From a virus: a stretch of DNA of 22,536 nt. The translations under genes and the position numbers were made by a program. Positions 1 through 7,126 of the stretch are shown one piece after another. Positions within the stretch are counted from its first letter, which is position 1, and each line of letters begins with the position of its first letter. Below the pieces are notes generated by a model that searched no databases, was not told where the DNA came from, and worked only from the letters and a program-made list of their open reading frames with translations. The stretch is from the UHGV virus genome UHGV-0277527; one strand, written 5' to 3'.

Positions 1-797
1 AAATTTGATAATGAGATATACTTACTGTAATGTGAATCATCACTAGAACCAAAGTTGCTTACAAGCATACCGTTATCATTATAATATCCACTCTCAAAAA
101 GAGTAATATCTGAAAGCATGTTGAATACGCAACCGCATCCATCTATAATTTTTTGCTTTGCCCTCTCAAATGTTTCATCGAAATTTTGAGGTATAATTAA
201 TGTTTTTTTTATGCCATATACCTTACCTGGAACTCCAATTATTTTTTTGTTGCTATTAAATGCCTCTTTTATTCCTGCTTGAATGTAGTTAGAGCAGTCA
301 ATATCTGATGTATTCCCATTAATGTCTGGCGGTATGAAATCATCAAAAGAAAGTGTTTCCCTTAATTTAATTAATGATGTCGTGCCTTTTGCATTGTTTT
401 CACTCTGAATGAATCCTATATATTTTGAACCATCGTTTCCAGACAATCTTTCTTCAAGCTGATCAGGGTCATACTTCAGCACATTAGGGAAATAGAATTG
501 CTGAGCACCATATGCATCATAAATAGCCATAGAGTGGCCTTGCACAGTTACGAACTTGGCAATCTGTCCGTTATATACAGGATAACCAGCGGCGTTAATG
601 ATGATTGGCTGCGAAACAGGAACGTGAGAACCGTCTTCATTCTCTACATAAACCTGAATCTGGTTTTCAGGATTTACCGGATCCGTGTCAATTTTTCCGA
701 TATAAATTTTGCCATTGGCATTTGCTTTAAACGAGCGAGCTAAAGTAAATAACTGACTTGGTTGTGAAACAACTACGTTGTATAATTGTTCTGGCAT
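1..797 (-). CDS. Tailspike protein, N-terminal part (P22 gp9-like head-binding domain, then a divergent AT-rich receptor-binding region); 3' end lies beyond the window
   Basis: Minus-strand translation from the ATG at 797-795 gives [59 protein letters not shown]...[27 protein letters not shown], which matches the P22 tailspike head-binding domain as I recall it. The frame stays open to position 1. Not in the ORF track because the stop is outside the window. Confidence 0.85.
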
Positions 798-819
798 AAT
801 AAACATTCCGGAGAAAATA

Positions 820-1320
820 ATGAGTAAGAGACGTCACGAGGTAGTAACTCGGGAGCGCCTTATGGAGGTTCTCGATTACAATAAAGAAACAGGAATTTTC
901 ACTTGGAAAAAGAAATTAAGCGCCAGAGGTGCTGTTGGGAAAGTTGCTGGCACAATTTCTTATGGATATAACGCAATTAATATTGATGGCGTAAGATATT
1001 TTGCACATAGACTTGCCTGGCTGTATGTATATGGCGAATGGCCCAAACAAGAGATTGACCACATTGATAGAAACAGAAGAAATAACGCAATCTCAAACCT
1101 TAGGGATGTCAGCAGAGTCGTAAATGCATTAAATGTCGGACCTCGAAATAGCAATGCTGGAATCAAGGGGTTAACTTTCTGTCAAGCCAGAAATCAATGG
1201 CAAGCTCAGATAAATGTCTCAGGTAAAAACATAACCCTTGGGAGATTCAACACCATTGATGAAGCGGCTATAGCTTATAAGGCAGCAAACATGGTTGCTG
1301 ACCATCTGTTGAGTAGGTAA
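820..1320 (+). CDS. Free-standing HNH homing endonuclease (HNH_3-type motif plus AP2-like DNA-binding domain)
   Basis: Track ORF 778-1320; the start is better placed at the ATG at 820, preceded by GGAG (MSKRRHEVV...). HNH-like motif [21 protein letters not shown]; C-terminal [43 protein letters not shown] resembles an AP2 domain. The gene is AT-rich and antisense to its neighbours. Confidence 0.75.
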
Positions 1321-1430: not shown

Positions 1431-2333
1431 TCAGTAATTATGTACTGAAGGAGGTAATTCTTTATTCTTAAGTCTCATCCATGCGGAAAGATTCGTTGGT
1501 CCGTCTGGCTCATTGATATCAACATCTCGTGTGTGATTAATTAAAACGTCTCTCGCTATATCGATAATACGGGAGAACTCATAACCGCAGTCATGACATC
1601 TGCCGGAATAGTTCGATTGAATTTGTTTTAATGCCGGATACAGTTCGCGGAATAATGCCTGTGAACGGTTGGCATAATCCCATAACCATACAAGGCTGTT
1701 TGCTTCTTTTGCAGAAAGCTCGTTGGTTTTCTTCTCTTGTTTGCCAATGAACTCACCTTCAAGCACTACCCTGTGGATGTACTCTACGGCTTGCGGTATC
1801 TGAGATGCATCAAGCTCTTCAATACTTTCCACATTGAAACGCTGATGAATCATTGCATAAGCTTCTGGGTACATTAGATGCTTTTTGCTGACCAGCATAT
1901 TTACAGCATCACGAAGCGGAGTCCTGTCATCAACAGATGTTTTCTTACGTGCATTTTCTGCCTTTCCCTTTGTCCAGTAGTCATGCAGCACAGTAAAGCA
2001 TTCTTCCTGGTACTGAATCAGTTTATCGCGGATGTCAGCACGAACTTTCTCAGGGTTGATGCTGAACAGCCACCCATTTAACTTCTTCAAAGGAAGGCAG
2101 AGTAACTTACGAAGCTTCCCATCAGCGGCAACCATGTTCATATGAACACAGTTGAATTTGCTAATCTGCTTCATGAGTTTTGTTTGCTGCGTTGACCAGC
2201 TCATTCCAAGGTTTTCAACGATTGGCTTCATCGCAACATATGCAACTCCGGCAGCCATGGCGGTGATAATTTGCTGACCGTTGAATGGTACGTAAGAGGT
2301 GTTCACTGCTTCTAAAATTGCTATACTATTCAT
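1431..2333 (-). CDS. ant: Antirepressor Ant (P22 immI)
   Basis: Track ORF 1431-2399; the start is placed at the internal ATG at 2333-2331 ([21 protein letters not shown]...), giving 300 aa as in P22 Ant, with GGAGA 7 nt upstream. Near-identical to P22 Ant as I recall it. Confidence 0.9.
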
Positions 2334-2334
2334 G

Positions 2335-2405
2335 TTGGTTTTTCTCCACGGATTTACTGACAACCGAAGCCCTGACTGTTCCCGCAGTTGGGGCTTCAAC
2401 TTTAC
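2335..2405 (+). ncRNA. sar: Candidate sar antisense RNA (about 70 nt, complementary to the ant RBS and the arc-ant junction)
   Basis: P22 is known to encode a 68-69 nt antisense RNA at this position. On the plus strand there is a -10-like TATACT at 2322-2327 inside the ant 5' end, and an imperfect hairpin (aagccctgac...gttggggctt, 2365-2398) followed by caacttt. Boundaries are approximate and inferred. Confidence 0.35.
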
Positions 2406-2563
2406 GCGCCAATGCGCCCTTCCTTCTTAAAGCTTTCCATTACTCTCTGATAAATCTCAGAGTTAACAGACCGACCATTCTCTTCCGCCACCTTGCGGAC
2501 CAAATCCAATACTTCTTTAGGCCACCGCAAATTGAACTGCGGCATCTTGCTCATTCCTTTCAT
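2402..2563 (-). CDS. arc: Arc repressor (ribbon-helix-helix)
   Basis: Track ORF 2402-2626; the start is placed at the internal ATG at 2563 ([53 protein letters not shown], 53 aa), matching P22 Arc. The track's upstream ATG at 2626 lies inside the Arc operator. Confidence 0.9.
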
Positions 2564-2579
2564 ATTCACCTCACAATAT

Positions 2580-2596
2580 AGGTCCACCGTGGACCT
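2580..2596. promoter_or_regulatory. Mnt operator (Omnt), 17-bp near-palindrome overlapping the Pant start region
   Basis: AGGTCCACCGTGGACCT read directly at 2580-2596; the half-sites GGTCCAC/GTGGACC are inverted repeats. Matches the P22 Mnt operator as I recall it. Confidence 0.7.
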
Positions 2597-2605
2597 ATTG
2601 AGAAT

Positions 2606-2626
2606 ATAGTAGAGTGCTTCTATCAT
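2606..2626. promoter_or_regulatory. Arc operator (Oarc), 21 bp, within the divergent Pant/Pmnt promoter region
   Basis: ATAGTAGAGTGCTTCTATCAT read directly at 2606-2626, with TAGA/TCTA half-site symmetry. It sits between the arc start (2563) and the mnt start (2654). Confidence 0.7.
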
Positions 2627-2653
2627 GTCAATACACTAACTTGGAGTGATGGC

Positions 2654-2905
2654 ATGGCTAGAGATGATCCGCACTTTAACTTCCGTATGCCTATGGAAGT
2701 AAGGGAGAAATTAAAATTCAGGGCGGAGGCGAATGGGAGATCAATGAACTCCGAGTTGTTACAAATCGTCCAAGATGCTCTATCAAAACCATCGCCTGTG
2801 ACTGGATATCGCGACGATGCAGAACGACTCGCTGATGAGCAGTCAGAGCTTGTTAAGAAGATGGTGTTTGATACGCTGAAGGATTTGTACAAAAAACCCA
2901 CCTGA
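2654..2905 (+). CDS. mnt: Mnt repressor (maintenance of lysogeny; represses ant)
   Basis: 83-aa ORF MARDDPHFNFRMPMEVREKLKFRAEANGRSMNSELLQIVQDALSKPSPVTGYRDDAERLADEQSELVKKMVFDTLKDLYKKPT, which matches P22 Mnt nearly residue for residue as I recall it. Confidence 0.9.
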   Translation: MARDDPHFNFRMPMEVREKLKFRAEANGRSMNSELLQIVQDALSKPSPVTGYRDDAERLADEQSELVKKMVFDTLKDLYKKPT

Positions 2906-2912
2906 AGGTGGG
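2891..2912 (-). terminator. Terminator between the convergent mnt and lipoprotein genes (strong on the minus strand; overlaps the mnt stop codon)
   Basis: Plus strand reads aaaaaa-cccacc-tgaa-ggtggg; on the minus strand this is a GGTGGG/CCCACC hairpin followed by TTTTTT, about 10 nt past the lipoprotein stop. Confidence 0.5.
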
Positions 2913-2921
2913 TCCTATTTA

Positions 2922-3341
2922 TTAGTCTTGCTTTGTTGATGGCATAAGAGATGCGTTTGCCTCTTTTGGCTTCAAGGTATACATCCCACCATTAAAAGGA
3001 TCTACAGCAAGCCAACCAATTAACCCACCAAACACAAGGTTTCCACCAATATACCAGCCATTAGCATTGGCTTTGATTGGCAGGGTAACTGGTTCGTACC
3101 CATCCTTTTCCATAGTGATCTGGTAGCTCTTTTTGCCAAAATAACTACCATCTGACTTGGCAAGAGTTACTCCTTGCGGGGTCTTACCTTGCGCAACAAT
3201 CACGCCTGATTCGTCTTTTACCTTAAAGCTCGCACCGGAAGGATTGCTGTTCACTTGCACAAGCTGCGTTTCGTCACCAACAATAGTTGCGCACCCAGAT
3301 AACAATATAGCGCCAGCAACGACGCCAATAATCCTCTTCAT
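2922..3341 (-). CDS. Predicted outer-membrane lipoprotein with a PEGA-like beta domain and a glycine-zipper-like hydrophobic C-terminus; accessory gene of unknown function
   Basis: Track ORF 2922-3353. Signal peptide with lipobox (MKRIIGVVAGAILLSG|C, Ala at +2). PEGA-like stretch SNPSGASFKVKDESGVIVAQGKTPQGVTLAKSDG...MEKDGYEP. C-terminal GWYIGGNLVFGGLIGWLAV. The start could be 3353 or 3341. Visibly AT-rich compared with the structural genes. Confidence 0.6.
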   Translation of the reverse strand: MKRIIGVVAGAILLSGCATIVGDETQLVQVNSNPSGASFKVKDESGVIVAQGKTPQGVTLAKSDGSYFGKKSYQITMEKDGYEPVTLPIKANANGWYIGGNLVFGGLIGWLAVDPFNGGMYTLKPKEANASLMPSTKQD

Positions 3342-3458
3342 ATCAATTTCCATATTTAAAAAACCGGAAACATCCTAATGACAAACCATTCAAATGTGAA
3401 GTAGGCAAAAGATGTTTACTTTTTTCATGGTATCCTGCTCAAAACTAAGGAGGTTGTC

Positions 3459-3848
3459 GTGAAGCAATTTCTTACTGCTATGTTCTTATTCATATCTTTT
3501 GGGGCTACAGCAGAGTGCTGGGTCGTTGGAGATATGCGCGGAATAAGCTATTCAGAACGAAATAATTTCCATCCGGAAGAAGATGGTTTTAGTGGAACAT
3601 TCATCATTAAGACAAACGGTGAAGATGCCAGCATCACATATTCTGGGACAGATGCGGGCGGCATGGCTTACAAAGCATTGTCTAAAAACTCCATCATAGG
3701 AATCGGCGCGAATGGCGAAACTCAACGCGTTATCGACTCATGGGTAATACATCCTACTGGAACAGTTTTAATGTCAAAAACCATTTCCGGTTATGGAAAT
3801 ATGGATTCAACCAAAGCTTTTGTTGGAAAAGTAAAAAGAAAATGTTAG
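3459..3848 (+). CDS. Secreted (periplasmic) protein of unknown function; accessory gene
   Basis: 129-aa ORF with a GTG start preceded by a strong SD (TAAGGAGG, 5-nt spacer). N-terminal signal peptide MKQFLTAMFLFISFGATA|ECW. No family recognised. AT-rich, and on the strand opposite the late operon. Confidence 0.55.
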   Translation: MKQFLTAMFLFISFGATAECWVVGDMRGISYSERNNFHPEEDGFSGTFIIKTNGEDASITYSGTDAGGMAYKALSKNSIIGIGANGETQRVIDSWVIHPTGTVLMSKTISGYGNMDSTKAFVGKVKRKC

Positions 3849-3872
3849 CGATTGAATCCAATTTCCCATACG

Positions 3873-5714
3873 TTACTGCTGTGTTGCCTCAGTAGCAAGC
3901 AGCGGCCTGATGGCATTTGCAGCGTTACTCAACGCTCTTTCATAGGCTGGCGTTCCAGCTTTAGTGTTTGCCAGACGTAAGAGAGCATTCCTTGCTGCTT
4001 TGGACTCATACAAGCGCATCATTGCACCAAAACCAGCCTCAAGCCCCATTGATACGCCAAGGGTCGCAGTTGCGCCAATCGTCCTTATCCTGTTGGCTTG
4101 CGATTGCCCCGTCTGAGTTACTACATTTGCGGTGTCTGACCTTGCTGTTTGCTGTAGAACTTCATGAAGAGCATCAAGCTCTTTCATGTGCTTTCCAGAA
4201 AAAATAGTGTTGTAAATTTCACCGCCTGACTGAGATTTCAGCTTATTAACTTCAGTGATGAACTTGGCTGGAGAGTCCCCGGCCTTTTCCGCTATTTTGC
4301 TGACGTAAGCTGCACGCATAGCATCTTTCCCTTTATCATCCAATGCGCTCCAGATTCGTTTCACGTCAGATGGTTTTCTGCTTAATACAACAGTATTTAT
4401 AAGTTCAGGACTGGCTTCACTGCTTGCCTTGTTGAGCTTGTTAGCAATGTTTTTATTAAGCACCTTATTATAAACGTTTGCATAATCGGAATTTGCTTTA
4501 AGGTATTTTGCTGCGTCTGACGCACCGAGGTTTTTTGCAACTGCGTTACGAAGGTCTTTTGACATTGCATTCTCTACCATATTGGTAGCTGCTTTTGCCT
4601 GGTTGGGGAAGACCATAGCATCTCCCTGAACATTAGATCTAAATGCTGTTCTGTGCTGACGCAAGAGATCAAACGTAACATCCAAATCAGTTGCAGGGTT
4701 TGCTAATTCTTCACGCAGGTTACGCAAGGATGTAAGCAGGCTTTGATTGGCAGACGTCCCAAGCCGTTCCTGTCTTGCGATCGCTGTATTCAGAGCATTC
4801 ATGGTATTTGTGGTATCAACTGCGGCATTACCCATTTTATTGGTGACGTCATTGATAACAGCGCCAGCGGCATCCTTCCGCCCCCTTAACGTGGTGGTAA
4901 GAGACTTCACCACATCATCAGGGTTGTACTCACCAAAACGGTCAAAATAATTGCTTACCAGCTTACTACGCGTTGCATATTGCTCAGCTCGCTTTGAGCC
5001 TGTCCCGAGCAAAGCCCCCTCAGCATCCTGAGTAAGTCCGCGAGTGAAAGCATTTTTCGGCGGGATAACATCAGATGTCATTGGTGTCACGCCCATCGAT
5101 TCTGATGTGGCAATTTTCTTCACCACTTCTGGCGCAATATCACCTTTTATAGCCGTTATTCCACGCCCTATTCCCTTTGCTGCTGCGGAAAGAACACCCT
5201 GAGCGGCAAGGTTAACTCCGGCATTTTTAGCTGCATTTTGTGCGAAATCGCCTTTCTGATTTGCGGCCTCTGCCAGTGATCCAATAGCCATGCTTCCTGC
5301 CGTTCCAACTCCTGGAACTAAATACCCGCCAATTGTTTCTCCAGCTTGCGCATAAGGGTCTGTCGGTCGCTCGACAGGGCGATAAACATCATCCAAAACC
5401 TTGGGGCCGCCAAGCCCCTGGCTGATTGCATTAATCAGACTTGCGCCCCCCTGCAATACGTCAAATGGTATGTTTACCAGACCACGACCAGCCTGTTCTG
5501 CAATTTGCCCTGCACTTTGACCACCTGTGAGCCAATCACCAGCTTGTTGCATCAATGATGGTTCTTCCCGTGTTGGTGCATTATTGGCCTGATTAACTGT
5601 TTGTTGCTGAACAGCCTGACCAGCAAAATACTCATCAATGGCGGTGCCAATATCTTCGGTGCTCGTACCATCAGGAAAGGTAAATGTCTTACCGTTTGCA
5701 GTTACTTTCATCAT
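3873..5714 (-). CDS. 16: Ejection (injection) protein gp16
   Basis: 613-aa ORF beginning (M)[33 protein letters not shown], matching the P22 gp16 N-terminus and length as I recall it. Start overlaps the upstream stop (ATGATGA). Confidence 0.85.
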
Positions 5715-7126
5715 TCCACCGTAAATTGAATGCCTGATTTTGAGGTATATGGTCCAACCTGATTCCGTGGTTCTCCTGAAGGTGTCGAATCTTGTGCTGG
5801 CGCTGCGTCAGTATTCATTGACATATACCGCTTAACGGCACTCCCCAATGATTCACCTTTTTTAACATCCAACCCCAATATCTGACCGCCATTACGCGAT
5901 TGTCCAGGGTTGCCATTCGCGCTCATCCACTCGGCTTTAAACTCATTAAACTGCGCGTTTCGTCGCTCAAGGTTTGCCATTGCATCAAGCCATCTTGCGA
6001 CCGTCTCAGGGTTATCCATGTCAGTTGGCGCACCCTGTCGAACGATCTCAACGTCTTTATCCGTTGCTGGTCCGGGAGGTAGGAATTTAAGAACCTGACT
6101 GTTAACAAGGGCATTTTGGCGAATGCGCAAATCACGCAATGTTGTATCGCTTCCGGTAAGTTTTGCGAACATGTTCTGTGCGTTACCGAACAAACCTGTC
6201 GTTGGTTTTTCTGCTCTGAACTGTTGAGCAAGCGCACTCATAGAATTGGCTGAGTTTGATGATGCTGTAGCATTGTTTACAGCCGTCTCGATGCCTTTTT
6301 CCATGTTTACTGACAGCTTAGGTGCTTCGCTAATCAACTGCTGAGCCTTTTCCTGCGCTTGCTGCATCTTAAACCCGAACTCTTGCTGATCCAGAGCTAA
6401 GCGTTGTGCTGCGATATTGTGCCCAGTCATTGCTGACTGATAGGAAAGGTTTTGCCCTCTCGCCTGAAGTGCTTCTCCTGCCTGATTGCTGCGGATTGTC
6501 TCTGCCAGCCTGCCTCGGTCAATTTCACGACCAGCCATCTTGTCCTGAACAGCAAACGCCTTTTCTGGACCAAGTGCACCGAGAGACATAGTAGTCAGCA
6601 TGTGTGATAGCTGCTCTGGATTCTGGATACCTGTCTGAATCATCCAGTCAGCATTAGCACCAACGCGATTTAACCTGTCCTTGTTGTCAGTAATGAATTT
6701 ACTGTAGGCTTCCGGTCCCTGAGAAAGAGCGACGTTAGCCCTCATGGCTAAATCGCCCATATCGTTGCGTTGCTGATCATTAAGACCGGAAAACGCCTGT
6801 TGTGCCTGTGCAACAAACGCTGGATTTTCCTGGGCAAACTTAAATAGTCCCGATGGATCACCAGAAGCCCATGCATCAGCGTGAACCTTATTGAACACAC
6901 TAATAGCTTTCTGTTGCTGTTCCTGATTGTAAATATCAGCAACTCCAGCCAGACCACGTAACGCGGTCAGGCCAACGTTATTTGCACCTGAGCGAGCCAG
7001 TTCATTGTTTTCGCGGATCAGACCAAGCGTTGCGTTAATGTCGCTTGCCTTTGGCGCATTCTCATTTTGCGTACCGATGCCAGCCAGAAAACCACCAGAA
7101 TTAATACCCTGTTGCCACGTAGCCAT
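5711..7126 (-). CDS. 20: Ejection protein gp20
   Basis: 471-aa ORF; its size and its position between gp7 and gp16 match P22 gene 20. Confidence 0.8.

Follow-up and report, generated by a model that had tools for sequence, protein, structure and literature searches.

In phage P22, the slot between mnt and gene 16 holds the superinfection-exclusion gene sieA, whose product is a 164-aa polytopic inner-membrane protein (PMC10883804). In P22-like phages the 'ant moron' has already been published as a hot spot (PMC2629481). A second described system is Hex of phage 434. According to PMC3564112, which cites Susskind and Botstein 1980, Salmonella lysogens with imm434 need this 'heterologous exclusion' protein in order to exclude P22. 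Hex is carried on the PRM transcript, and hex- lysogens undergo 30-fold more spontaneous induction, in recA+ cells only. A 6-kDa fragment, with which the in vitro work was done, blocks RecA-stimulated autocleavage of the 434 and P22 repressors, and a cytoplasmic role was assigned to the protein; full-length Hex is lethal when overexpressed (PMC3564112). This is the only biochemical study of a member of the Hex family. A third group of described proteins consists of Cor, Llp and Bor, which are small prophage-encoded outer-membrane lipoprotein morons.

We compared with these systems the interval 2922-3848 of the window, that is, of the whole stretch of 22,536 nucleotides analysed (virus genome UHGV-0277527). 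The interval is the right-hand part of the hypervariable 'ant moron' in a P22-like prophage of E. coli and consists of two independent single-gene cassettes, here called genes A and B. Table 1 lists their features and those of the flanking genes. We lean slightly towards an explanation in which the cassettes are independent, B being a Hex-family exclusion factor in the sieA-type expression site (the socket) and A a captured outer-membrane lipoprotein. The locus and its genes do not represent a new kind of system: all are already known, and genomes of E. coli, Salmonella and E. albertii commonly list the products as 'hypothetical proteins'. The initial annotation recognised neither as a characterised phage protein and placed the secreted one in an unknown family. 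This has to be corrected, as A is gp15 of epsilon34 (phrog_6823), and B is orf129 of Emek (phrog_2651) and falls in the family of phage 434 Hex. The Pfam, NCBIfam and PADLOC scans of both proteins gave nothing above threshold. Profile searches against PDB sequences gave chance-level matches only, and Foldseek against BFVD gave no match with E < 1e-3. The anatomy read from the DNA at the outset, namely the lipobox, the signal peptide, the consensus SD with a GTG start, the terminal cysteines and the terminator, holds, and both products are predicted to be envelope-targeted.

Table 1. Features of the mnt-gene 16 interval and its borders (positions in the window)
Feature	Position	Strand	Remarks
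mnt repressor gene	2654..2905	+	Context; left border of the variable cargo slot; Pfam Arc 3.9e-30 and Repressor_Mnt 7.2e-19
Bidirectional intrinsic terminator	2895..2913	.	Common to mnt (+) and gene A (-); left edge of the A cassette
Gene A, 139-aa predicted outer-membrane lipoprotein precursor	2922..3341	-	ORF open from 3353 (2922-3353)
Candidate sigma-70 promoter of gene A	3372..3400	-	-35 TTCACA, 17 nt, -10 TAGGAT; consensus match only, 9/12
sieA-type leader (socket)	3412..3458	+	TGGTATCCT at 3428-3436 is a candidate extended -10; SD TAAGGAGGT at 3446-3454; GTG at 3459
Gene B, 129-aa predicted secreted Hex-family protein	3459..3848	+	Start codon GTG, 4 nt beyond TAAGGAGGT
Gene 16-type ejection (DNA transfer) protein	3873..5714	-	Context; phrog_770 at 1.8e-279; convergent with B, 24 nt apart

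At the left border, the mnt DNA is 98.4% identical to that of P22. The terminator reported beside mnt is real, and it is bidirectional according to the terminator scan and folding: the hairpin reaches -14.5 kcal/mol on the - strand, where it is followed by U6, and -12 kcal/mol on the + strand. The same hairpin is annotated as a Rho-independent terminator in epsilon34, and similarity to A-less relatives ends at its last position, 2913. At the other end of gene A, the DNA shared with the Gally prophage, whose orthologue of A is transcribed in lysogens, stops at 3385 and so covers the -10 but not the -35 of the candidate promoter; the Gally sequence upstream of 3385 differs. Inspection by eye for a PhoP-type box upstream of A gave nothing convincing.

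The start of A is likely M5 (position 3341), because its relatives are 137-139 aa long and begin with MKR or MKK. The lipobox reads LLSG/C, with Ala at +2. A Gly-rich hydrophobic hairpin (GWYIGGNLVFGGLIGWLAV) is the most conserved part of the family; its hydrophobic stretch of 19 residues holds two GxxxG motifs, and a VDPFNGGMY beta-hairpin is also present. What had been called a glycine-zipper-like C-terminus is a real and conserved Gly-rich stretch, but 26 residues lie C-terminal to it, it is modelled at low confidence, and A has no match to the Gly-zipper models of Pfam (SlyB/PCP type) at E<=0.1. The term PEGA-like likewise fits the fold, as the AlphaFold model of A is a transthyretin/PEGA-type beta-sandwich, but not the Pfam score, since PEGA (PF08308) gives A 17.5 bits against a gathering cut-off of 20.8. 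Among 49 relatives of A, 6 reach E<0.01 with this model (best 0.0013), and all members tested stay under the gathering cut-off. When compared with known PEGA/transthyretin-like domains (SlaB, carboxypeptidase regulatory-like), A differs by its lipid anchor and its hydrophobic C-terminal module. For A, neither the fold nor the neighbourhood offers a functional clue.

Orthologues of A, 97-98% identical, are found in epsilon34 (gp15) and Gally (GALLYPH_14) at the same place beside mnt and with the same terminator. The neighbouring gene differs, being hkcB in epsilon34, another lipoprotein gene in Gally and B here; nothing else of substance distinguishes the three. Relatives of A are encoded in at least 209 species, and the family is chromosomal in over 200 proteobacterial species, with identities of 51-62% from Enterobacterales to Zetaproteobacteria. 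The order mmuP-mmuM-A-speG is kept in 26 Pantoea/Erwinia loci, and phage tail genes occur near the relative of A in only 6 of the best 80 loci. The closest relatives (68-78% identical) are morons in lambdoid tail clusters of Pseudescherichia, E. coli ED1a and Proteus, some of them beside the gpJ or tape-measure gene and one directly before the tip-fibre gene J. Judged by these comparisons, the A family is an ancient, strongly conserved and mostly chromosomal group of proteobacterial lipoproteins that has been captured by several phage types. It has no Pfam model, no characterised member was found in the literature, and literature searches on the locus tags of A and on PEGA lipoproteins in prophages found nothing.

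Expression of A can be followed in E. coli LF82, where its 98% identical orthologue in the Gally prophage is transcribed (PMC9928086, S1 and S4 Tables). The log2 fpkm values of GALLYPH_14 are 6.2/4.8 in LB, 9.8-10.5 for bacteria only and, in macrophages, 11.0 after 1 h and 9.4-9.5 after 6 h; the log2FC of 3.84 (q=1.4e-31) corresponds to a roughly 14-fold rise in macrophages (PMC9928086). Virion genes of the same prophage stay at 3-4 and the C2 repressor lies at 9-12 on this scale (PMC9928086). The authors did not class GALLYPH_14 as a moron, because its 3.3-fold level over the LB background is below their 5-fold cut-off (PMC9928086). The earlier suggestion of lysogen expression stands for A through its orthologue. 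A marks a large outer-membrane lipoprotein family across Proteobacteria, a member of which is strongly expressed by the prophage of a Crohn's-associated E. coli inside macrophages. In our explanation, A forms, with its own promoter region and the bidirectional terminator, a cassette of its own between the mnt terminator and the socket. Its transcription from the prophage, as measured for the orthologue, rises sharply in cell-culture medium and in macrophages. A would act as a lysogenic-conversion envelope protein that brings a host-type outer-membrane function (for example envelope robustness or surface remodelling).

A different reading of A, as an exclusion lipoprotein of Cor/Llp type that binds and inactivates an outer-membrane phage receptor, appears unlikely to us. 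It would suit a predicted outer-membrane lipoprotein whose closest relatives are morons in lambdoid tail clusters, once right before J, and there is a weak match to the Cor family of PHROGs (phrog_1119, E 0.0036). However, this match is confined to residues 5-24, the signal peptide, and past that point Cor, Llp and Bor have no homology to A, which has in addition the transthyretin/PEGA-like sandwich, the Gly-rich hydrophobic hairpin and an old chromosomal ancestry, with housekeeping synteny conserved in Pantoea. The dN/dS of 0.03-0.12 also argues against an arms-race protein, and A is carried by phages with unrelated receptors. The lipoprotein is thus probably not a phage-specific receptor mask.

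The placement of the interval in the 'sieA position' proved exact for gene B. Like sieA in P22, B lies between mnt and gene 16 and is convergent with gene 16, at 24 nt from its stop compared with 22 nt in P22, behind a near-identical leader, SD and GTG. From 3412 to 3456, 43 of 45 positions (95.6%) agree with the DNA immediately before sieA in P22, and this P22 counterpart of the leader overlaps what the P22-pbi record annotates as 'P sieA'. The core of the leader occurs once in the window and in 0 of 100 shuffles. It was found in 119 IMG/VR contigs, preceding B in 22, hkcB in 20, SieA in 12 and, in the rest, 65 other ORFs of at least nine further families. In total, the ORFs behind the leader belong to at least 12 unrelated families, and 11 of 12 were judged by eye to carry either a signal peptide or a TM segment. 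The slot is occupied by SieA in some P22-like prophages and by B in others, and both are envelope proteins. They have no sequence similarity, and a tblastn search with SieA gave no match in the window and none in the 80 B-carrying contigs. Unlike the polytopic SieA, B combines a cleavable signal peptide with an all-beta fold and is predicted to be a secreted soluble barrel. The shared leader suggests that P22-like phages swap exclusion cargo by replacing whole cassettes from a start codon that stays in place, and it may offer a route to harvest candidate entry-blocking proteins.

The promoter scan gave no canonical -35/-10 pair for B, and we infer from the sequence of the leader that it may act as a promoter for this gene. 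In other P22-like prophages, the reading frames of B relatives either overlap the stop codon of mnt or come after mnt and Rap1a in a single operon, which corresponds to the lysogenic Pmnt transcript. Here A and the terminator lie between Pmnt and B, so transcription of B would depend on the putative leader promoter.

The signal peptide of B, MKQFLTAMFLFISFGATA followed by EC, is of the Sec type with a predicted cleavage at ATA/EC, after residue 18. The mature protein is flanked by Cys20 and Cys129, both invariant or nearly so across the family, and in the model these are probably placed for an N-to-C disulfide. The model itself is an up-and-down beta-barrel of about 111 aa, a generic 8-stranded fold that gives no functional clue. 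Two assignments were rejected. B was tested as an integral 8-stranded outer-membrane barrel (NspA/OmpW/OmpA type) by its membrane-spanning strands and C-terminal aromatic beta-signal, and it does not qualify; as a PliC/MliC lysozyme inhibitor it lacks a match in sequence or in specific fold. A Pfam scan of 68 distant relatives of B and three long multi-domain matches found no shared family.

Profile comparison places B in the Hex family of phage 434. The profile built from B relatives matches 434 Hex and Sf6 gp38 end to end (105 bits, E 2e-25; 27% pairwise identity), and tblastn with a relative of B finds the 434 'repressor protection protein', Sf6 gene 38, HK446, HK633 and Sf101. The search for related loci was seeded with a close B alignment and with Hex alone, as broad B alignments were too divergent. 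Hex and B have the same size, a signal peptide followed by xCW, an ETW motif and FVGxVxGxC at the C-terminus, and both occupy an accessory position, which is expressed from the prophage for Hex and may be so for B. The position differs, however: Hex is translationally coupled to cI as the second gene of the PRM operon, directly downstream of a 434-type cI in 80/80 loci, whereas B, with only about 27% identity to it, lies beside gene 16 behind the sieA leader. One contig carries both Hex and B, so the two may not be redundant. In 143 members of the B/Hex family, we counted an N-proximal Cys-aromatic pair in 140, a hydrophobic h-region just before this pair in 128 and a Cys within the last 8 residues in 131. 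The family is therefore probably periplasmic.

In the explanation that we prefer for B, the gene occupies the expression socket that holds sieA in P22, and its product would be made by the lysogen. The precursor would be exported by Sec and cleaved after ATA18. Once in the periplasm, the mature chain would fold as a small beta-barrel, which a Cys20-Cys129 disulfide probably closes. There it would exclude incoming P22-like phages by interfering with the trans-periplasmic ejection-protein conduit (gp7/gp20/gp16), and it could thus be a soluble functional analogue of the inner-membrane SieA. The published alternative is that B acts as described for Hex, in the cytoplasm, where it would bind a 434/P22-type repressor, protect it from RecA-stimulated autocleavage and stabilise lysogeny. 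We consider this quite unlikely for B, even though B is a homologue of Hex in a P22-like phage and the recA-dependent 30-fold effect on induction and the block of autocleavage in both repressors (PMC3564112) speak for it. The family keeps a Sec signal peptide, with a cleavage site of the AxA type, and a pair of cysteines as is typical for periplasmic proteins in oxidised form. The first residue of the active fragment is exactly the predicted N-terminus of the mature protein, as the stable Hex fragment (PMC3564112) starts at E43 of the 158-aa ORF, which is E19 of the 134-aa ORF and the first residue past the predicted site ANS/E; with 6 kDa, it amounts to half of the barrel. Moreover, the gene stands in the sieA socket by an ejection-protein gene, among membrane-protein cargos, and not by a repressor gene, both in the window and in at least 80 contigs.

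The exclusion reading can be extended to the whole family. The sieA socket holds a relative of Hex, and signal peptide and cysteine pair run through the whole family; from this follows a concrete and cheap hypothesis, a periplasmic block of DNA delivery. All Hex proteins, including B, would then be soluble periplasmic exclusion factors directed against the P22-like ejection conduit, the published anti-RecA role of Hex in the cytoplasm would reflect an indirect effect or an artefact of the in vitro assay, and the sieA leader would be a plug-in socket for a dozen or more unrelated envelope-acting exclusion genes. This wider proposal is tentative, and we regard it as possible but rather doubtful. 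It questions the only published mechanism of Hex. If true, it would mean that short-tailed phages of Gram-negative bacteria have, as a first case, an exclusion protein that is secreted and not bound to a membrane.

A periplasmic B could also be an immunity or inhibitor protein whose target is a type VI effector, a lysozyme or a bacteriocin, with no anti-phage role. We hold this to be improbable. The Pfam scan gave no match to MliC or another inhibitor, the PhiA score is under that of many unrelated barrels, and Rap1a is just one among many alternative neighbours. In addition, exclusion of P22 is the sole known phenotype of the family.

As for the relation between the two cassettes, the initial annotation treated the interval as a two-gene locus. 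Sequence comparison shows instead that A and B are unrelated and separately inherited and do not form a two-gene module. Epsilon34 shares the window from 2400 to 3456, that is, mnt, A and the leader, while Emek shares it from 3428 and ST-35 from 3412, which covers the leader, B and gene 16 at its 3' end. In a relative that lacks A, 2400-2913 and 3425-6000 are shared. The mosaic breakpoint between the genes lies at about 3412-3428. Across P22-like prophages with B, the gene 16-mnt junction keeps B fixed beside gene 16 and has variable inserts toward mnt. B is convergent with, and directly beside, the gene 16 homologue in 80/80 IMG/VR contigs and in all further P22-like loci examined, with relatives down to 29-33% identity, and the mnt-B spacing in the IMG/VR B contigs falls into at least 15 size classes from 360 to 3060 bp. 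In the 69 B contigs that include mnt, the DNA between the two genes carries A in 18, a homologue of Rap1a in 12 and the toxin-antitoxin pair SocA/Panacea in about 6. Epsilon34, Gally and 720R6 have A but no B, as do the lambdoid tail clusters and ordinary chromosomal loci.

That A and B form one new two-component envelope module for superinfection exclusion, receptor masking or anti-phage defence is very unlikely, for although the genes are adjacent and divergent around a shared AT-rich intergenic region, their products are both envelope-targeted and 43 of 5426 complete E. coli genomes contain exactly this junction, PADLOC matches neither gene, the breakpoint separates them, B is accompanied by Rap1a, the SocA pair or other inserts instead, and A lacks B in more than 200 chromosomal loci. 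Superinfection exclusion stays plausible for B by itself.

Each ORF is real and intact, and purifying selection acts on both, with a dN/dS of 0.03-0.12 for A and a median of 0.24 for B. A frameshifted B allele (P0132, in a cluster of 642) was considered as a widespread form and rejected, since the frameshifted sequence is on 2 contigs and the intact sequence of the window on at least 1000. The description of both genes as visibly AT-rich applies to part of the interval. Its GC content of 41.9%, compared with 47.8% for the window, is at the 4th percentile of 927-bp windows, and B (40.8%) and the intergenic stretch (33%) are low; gene A, however, equals mnt at 45.2%, and the neighbouring ant/arc/mnt region is itself at 40-45%.

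The window comprises the half of a P22-like (Lederbergvirus) prophage that contains the virion genes; over 2600-4000 its identity with the E. coli strain 19451123 chromosome is 100%. Of 5426 complete E. coli genomes, 43 have the same junction, O111:H- 11128 among them. The immunity I region is complete, with sar, ant, arc and mnt. Under the name 'ant moron', the stretch separating gene 16 from the tailspike gene was characterised in 2008 as 'in a state of rapid flux'; sixteen genomes had ten types of it (PMC2629481). It is a known hot spot, and its genes A and B, listed in the table, are both common 'hypothetical proteins'. The HNH/AP2 gene lies between the tailspike gene and ant, and P22-like prophages from Citrobacter and from metagenomes (L019, L022-L024) have the same insertion.

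Features of the ant region and its neighbours (window positions)
Feature	Position	Strand	Remark
HNH endonuclease gene with AP2 domain	778-1320	+	HNH_3, 2.5e-16
ant	1431-2399	-	
sar antisense RNA	2334-2401	+	Rfam RF00262, 95.6 bits
arc	between sar and mnt	-	
mnt	2654-2905	+	
Bidirectional terminator hairpin	2895-2913	both	-14.5 kcal/mol then U6 on A side; -12 kcal/mol on mnt side
Gene A	2922-3341	-	predicted outer-membrane lipoprotein
Gene B	3459-3848	+	secreted Hex-family protein
Gene 16, ejection protein	3873-5714	-	
Gene 20, ejection protein	beyond gene 16	-	

The initial annotation had described A and B as one AT-rich accessory locus in the sieA position; its observation was largely correct and its interpretation partly right. 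Both ORFs agree with its description (lipobox, signal peptide, GTG start, cysteines), and the proposed envelope targeting fits the lipobox of A and the signal peptide of B. The AT-richness is modest: the GC content is 41.9% compared with 47.8% in the window, but the rest of the ant region is similar and A has the same GC content as mnt. The terminator claimed between mnt and A works both ways according to its folding energies, and is stronger for A than for mnt.

The sieA position is confirmed for B. In P22, sieA shares the strand of mnt and is convergent with gene 16, from which 22 nt separate it; B is placed likewise, with a gap of 24 nt. The stretch upstream of P22 sieA is identical to window 3412-3456 at 43 of 45 positions, while both flanks are unrelated, and the 'P sieA' feature in the P22-pbi record overlaps its 5' end. 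The invariant core of this leader, which we call the socket, is TGGTATCCTG-N3-AAAACTAAGGAGGTTG-N2-GTG (window 3428-3461); it occurs once in the window and in 0 of 100 shuffles. IMG/VR was scanned for the exact pattern, and among the matches listed the core was followed by B in at least 22 contigs, hkcB-like proteins in at least 20, SieA in at least 12, and at least 65 further ORFs from at least 9 families. Inspection by eye shows a transmembrane segment or signal peptide at the start of 11 of the 12 families among these matches. No SieA was found in the 80 B-carrying contigs searched, and therefore a single expression site takes either B or SieA. TGGTATCCT is a candidate extended -10 element; a standard promoter scan at the leader returned no -35/-10 pair. 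B relatives down to 29-33% identity still adjoin gene 16. In two contigs, no gene other than B separates the tailspike gene from gene 16; in other loci the coding sequence of its relative overlaps the stop codon of mnt, or the relative shares an operon with mnt and a Rap1a-family gene, both of which precede it. The placement of the Hex family in a shared sieA-type expression socket is new and testable. At least 12 unrelated small ORF families follow the core by gene 16 in P22-like contigs (including L273-L352), and certain unclassified membrane proteins among them may represent other SieA sequence types mentioned in PMC10883804.

B starts at a GTG four bases 3' of TAAGGAGGT; its signal peptide ends ATA/E, and cysteines occupy mature positions 2 and 111. 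B had been taken as a protein of unrecognised family, and the Pfam, NCBIfam and PADLOC models gave no match to it, but it belongs to phrog_2651 and profile comparison relates it to a named exclusion protein, Hex of phage 434. Word-indexed search gave 22 close relatives and a profile then gave 50. When 1.84 billion representatives were searched exhaustively with a profile, 118 clusters matched, almost all of them proteins of about 125-135 residues that stand alone. With a 51%-identical relative as tblastn query, annotated phage genes were matched at 33-35% identity: the 434 gene directly 3' of cI (annotated 'repressor protection protein'), Sf6 gene 38, and the counterpart of these genes in HK446, HK633 and Sf101. 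A profile built from 32 relatives of B, with all these sequences left out, aligned end to end with the 434 protein (105 bits, E 2.2e-25 in a search space of 1.84 billion). At least 1000 contigs carry the exact, intact B sequence; the frameshifting raised initially as an objection was seen on 2 contigs, whose rare 134-aa form is the cluster representative (P0132). Many database entries give B as 122 aa from an internal ATG (MFLFISF...) instead of the GTG, and so truncate the signal peptide. One 41-kb P22-like contig (IMGVR_UViG_648276644_000012; L135, L255) has B by gene 16 and Hex by a 434-type cI, so two paralogues are able to coexist in one phage.

Hex is co-transcribed with cI from PRM (Shkilnyj et al., PMC3564112), and is needed for exclusion when P22 superinfects lambda-imm434 Salmonella lysogens, according to Susskind and Botstein 1980 as cited in PMC3564112. 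Without Hex, spontaneous induction in recA+ cells is 30-fold higher; in vitro, a 6-kDa fragment of the protein inhibits the autocleavage that RecA stimulates in both the 434 and the P22 repressor, and overexpression of the full-length protein is lethal, which is left unexplained there (PMC3564112). The stable, active fragment 'sHex' (L030:2378-2854, phage 434, OL657227) begins at Glu43 of a 158-residue ORF (PMC3564112). This residue is Glu19 of the 134-residue ORF, the first past the predicted signal-peptidase site ANS/E; PMC3564112 makes no mention of a signal peptide, membrane, periplasm or export. Among 143 full-length family members, a Cys-aromatic pair near the N-terminus is found in 140, a hydrophobic nine-residue stretch directly ahead of it in 128, and a cysteine in the last eight residues in 131. 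AlphaFold models B with confidence (pLDDT 89.8) as an up-and-down barrel made of beta strands only. B is unlikely to be an integral membrane barrel because its mature form has only 111 aa, its strands are mostly 5-9 residues, it ends in KRKC and the cysteine pair is conserved. Hex-family proteins thus look periplasmic from these predicted features, a reading that is new and testable. The place of B in the sieA socket supports the idea that it would do a SieA-like job from the periplasmic side, and for B an exclusion role is plausible.

A and B do not form the two-gene pair originally proposed; they are independent cassettes, and A also occurs elsewhere without B. In the mosaic mapping, epsilon34 matches the window over 2400-3456, Gally (a prophage of E. 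coli LF82) over 2654-3385, Emek and ST-35 from 3428 and 3412 onward, respectively, and an A-less relative over 2400-2913 and 3425-6000. These breakpoints bound the A cassette at about 2914-3411, with the mnt terminator on one side and the socket on the other. The mnt-to-B DNA falls into at least 15 size classes in the 69 B-carrying IMG/VR contigs that include mnt: 18 have A as the insert, 12 have a homologue of Rap1a-type type VI immunity proteins, about 6 have a SocA/Panacea toxin-antitoxin pair, and the rest have other inserts. The Rap1a-family (PF18602) protein has a signal peptide, and in some P22-like prophages its gene lies in the mnt operon, between mnt and the B homologue (L019:6646-6987; L180 and 11 other IMG/VR loci); it would be a phage-borne orphan immunity gene. 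In phage Emek (L002:1290-2163) and about 9 IMG/VR loci, the slot holds a SocA/Panacea antitoxin gene (PF13274, 8e-25) that overlaps the gene of a 161-aa partner; the two probably form a toxin-antitoxin or defence pair.

A (phrog_6823; lipobox LLSG/C, Ala at +2) is found exactly on 260 contigs, and epsilon34 gp15, Gally GALLYPH_14 and a vB_EcoP-720R6 gene are 97-98% identical to it. The PEGA-like domain suggested for A stands as a confident beta-sandwich (residues 25-93) in the AlphaFold model (mean pLDDT 78), but the Pfam PEGA score was below threshold in all 49 relatives tested. Two low-confidence short helices over a Gly-rich hydrophobic stretch and a confident beta-hairpin follow. The family occurs in at least 209 species-level genomes at 51-80% identity, from Enterobacterales and Pasteurellaceae to Chromohalobacter, Nitrosomonas, Gallionellaceae and Mariprofundus. 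It lies between mmuP-mmuM and speG with conserved synteny at 26 Pantoea/Erwinia loci, and at ordinary chromosomal loci in Enterobacter and Xenorhabdus; lambdoid tail genes accompany only 6 of the best 80 family loci. The closest relatives of the window copy (68-78% identical) are morons in lambdoid tail clusters: in Pseudescherichia the moron separates gpI from gpJ, and in E. coli ED1a and Proteus it is flanked by the genes for the tail chaperone and the tape measure. Since the family is large, old and mostly at non-tail loci, A is a host-type, predicted outer-membrane lipoprotein captured repeatedly by phages. Both genes are under purifying selection (dN/dS 0.03-0.12 for A; median 0.24 for B, 286 pairs), and the very low values of A together with its host-type origin argue against a fast-evolving receptor mask. 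The ED1a lambdoid prophage (CU928162, L012:11261-12424) also has a porin gene (Porin_1) inside its tail cluster, which therefore holds several envelope morons.

For A, the proposed expression in lysogens is borne out by its orthologue GALLYPH_14, which is transcribed in the LF82 transcriptomes (Misson et al., PMC9928086, S1 and S4 Tables). Its log2 fpkm is 6.2 / 4.8 in overnight LB, 9.8-10.5 in bacteria alone at 1 h and 6 h, 11.0 in macrophages at 1 h and 9.4-9.5 at 6 h (log2FC 3.84 for macrophage 6 h vs LB, q=1.4e-31); in the same data, virion genes remain at 3-4 and values for the C2 repressor are 9-12. The LB level of GALLYPH_14 is 3.3-fold over the prophage median, under the 5-fold cut-off, and the authors therefore judged Gally moron-free (PMC9928086). 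Gally DNA is shared with the window only to 3385, so the regulation of A in Gally may differ. New and testable here is an uncharacterised, widely conserved lipoprotein family with a member that is induced in macrophages from a Crohn's-associated prophage. Divergent from the A orthologue, GALLYPH_13 (L004:3140-3655) encodes a predicted lipoprotein of 171 aa with an LLLAGC lipobox; it is up in macrophages (log2FC 2.55) and in LB is 4.5-fold over background, just below the published moron cut-off.
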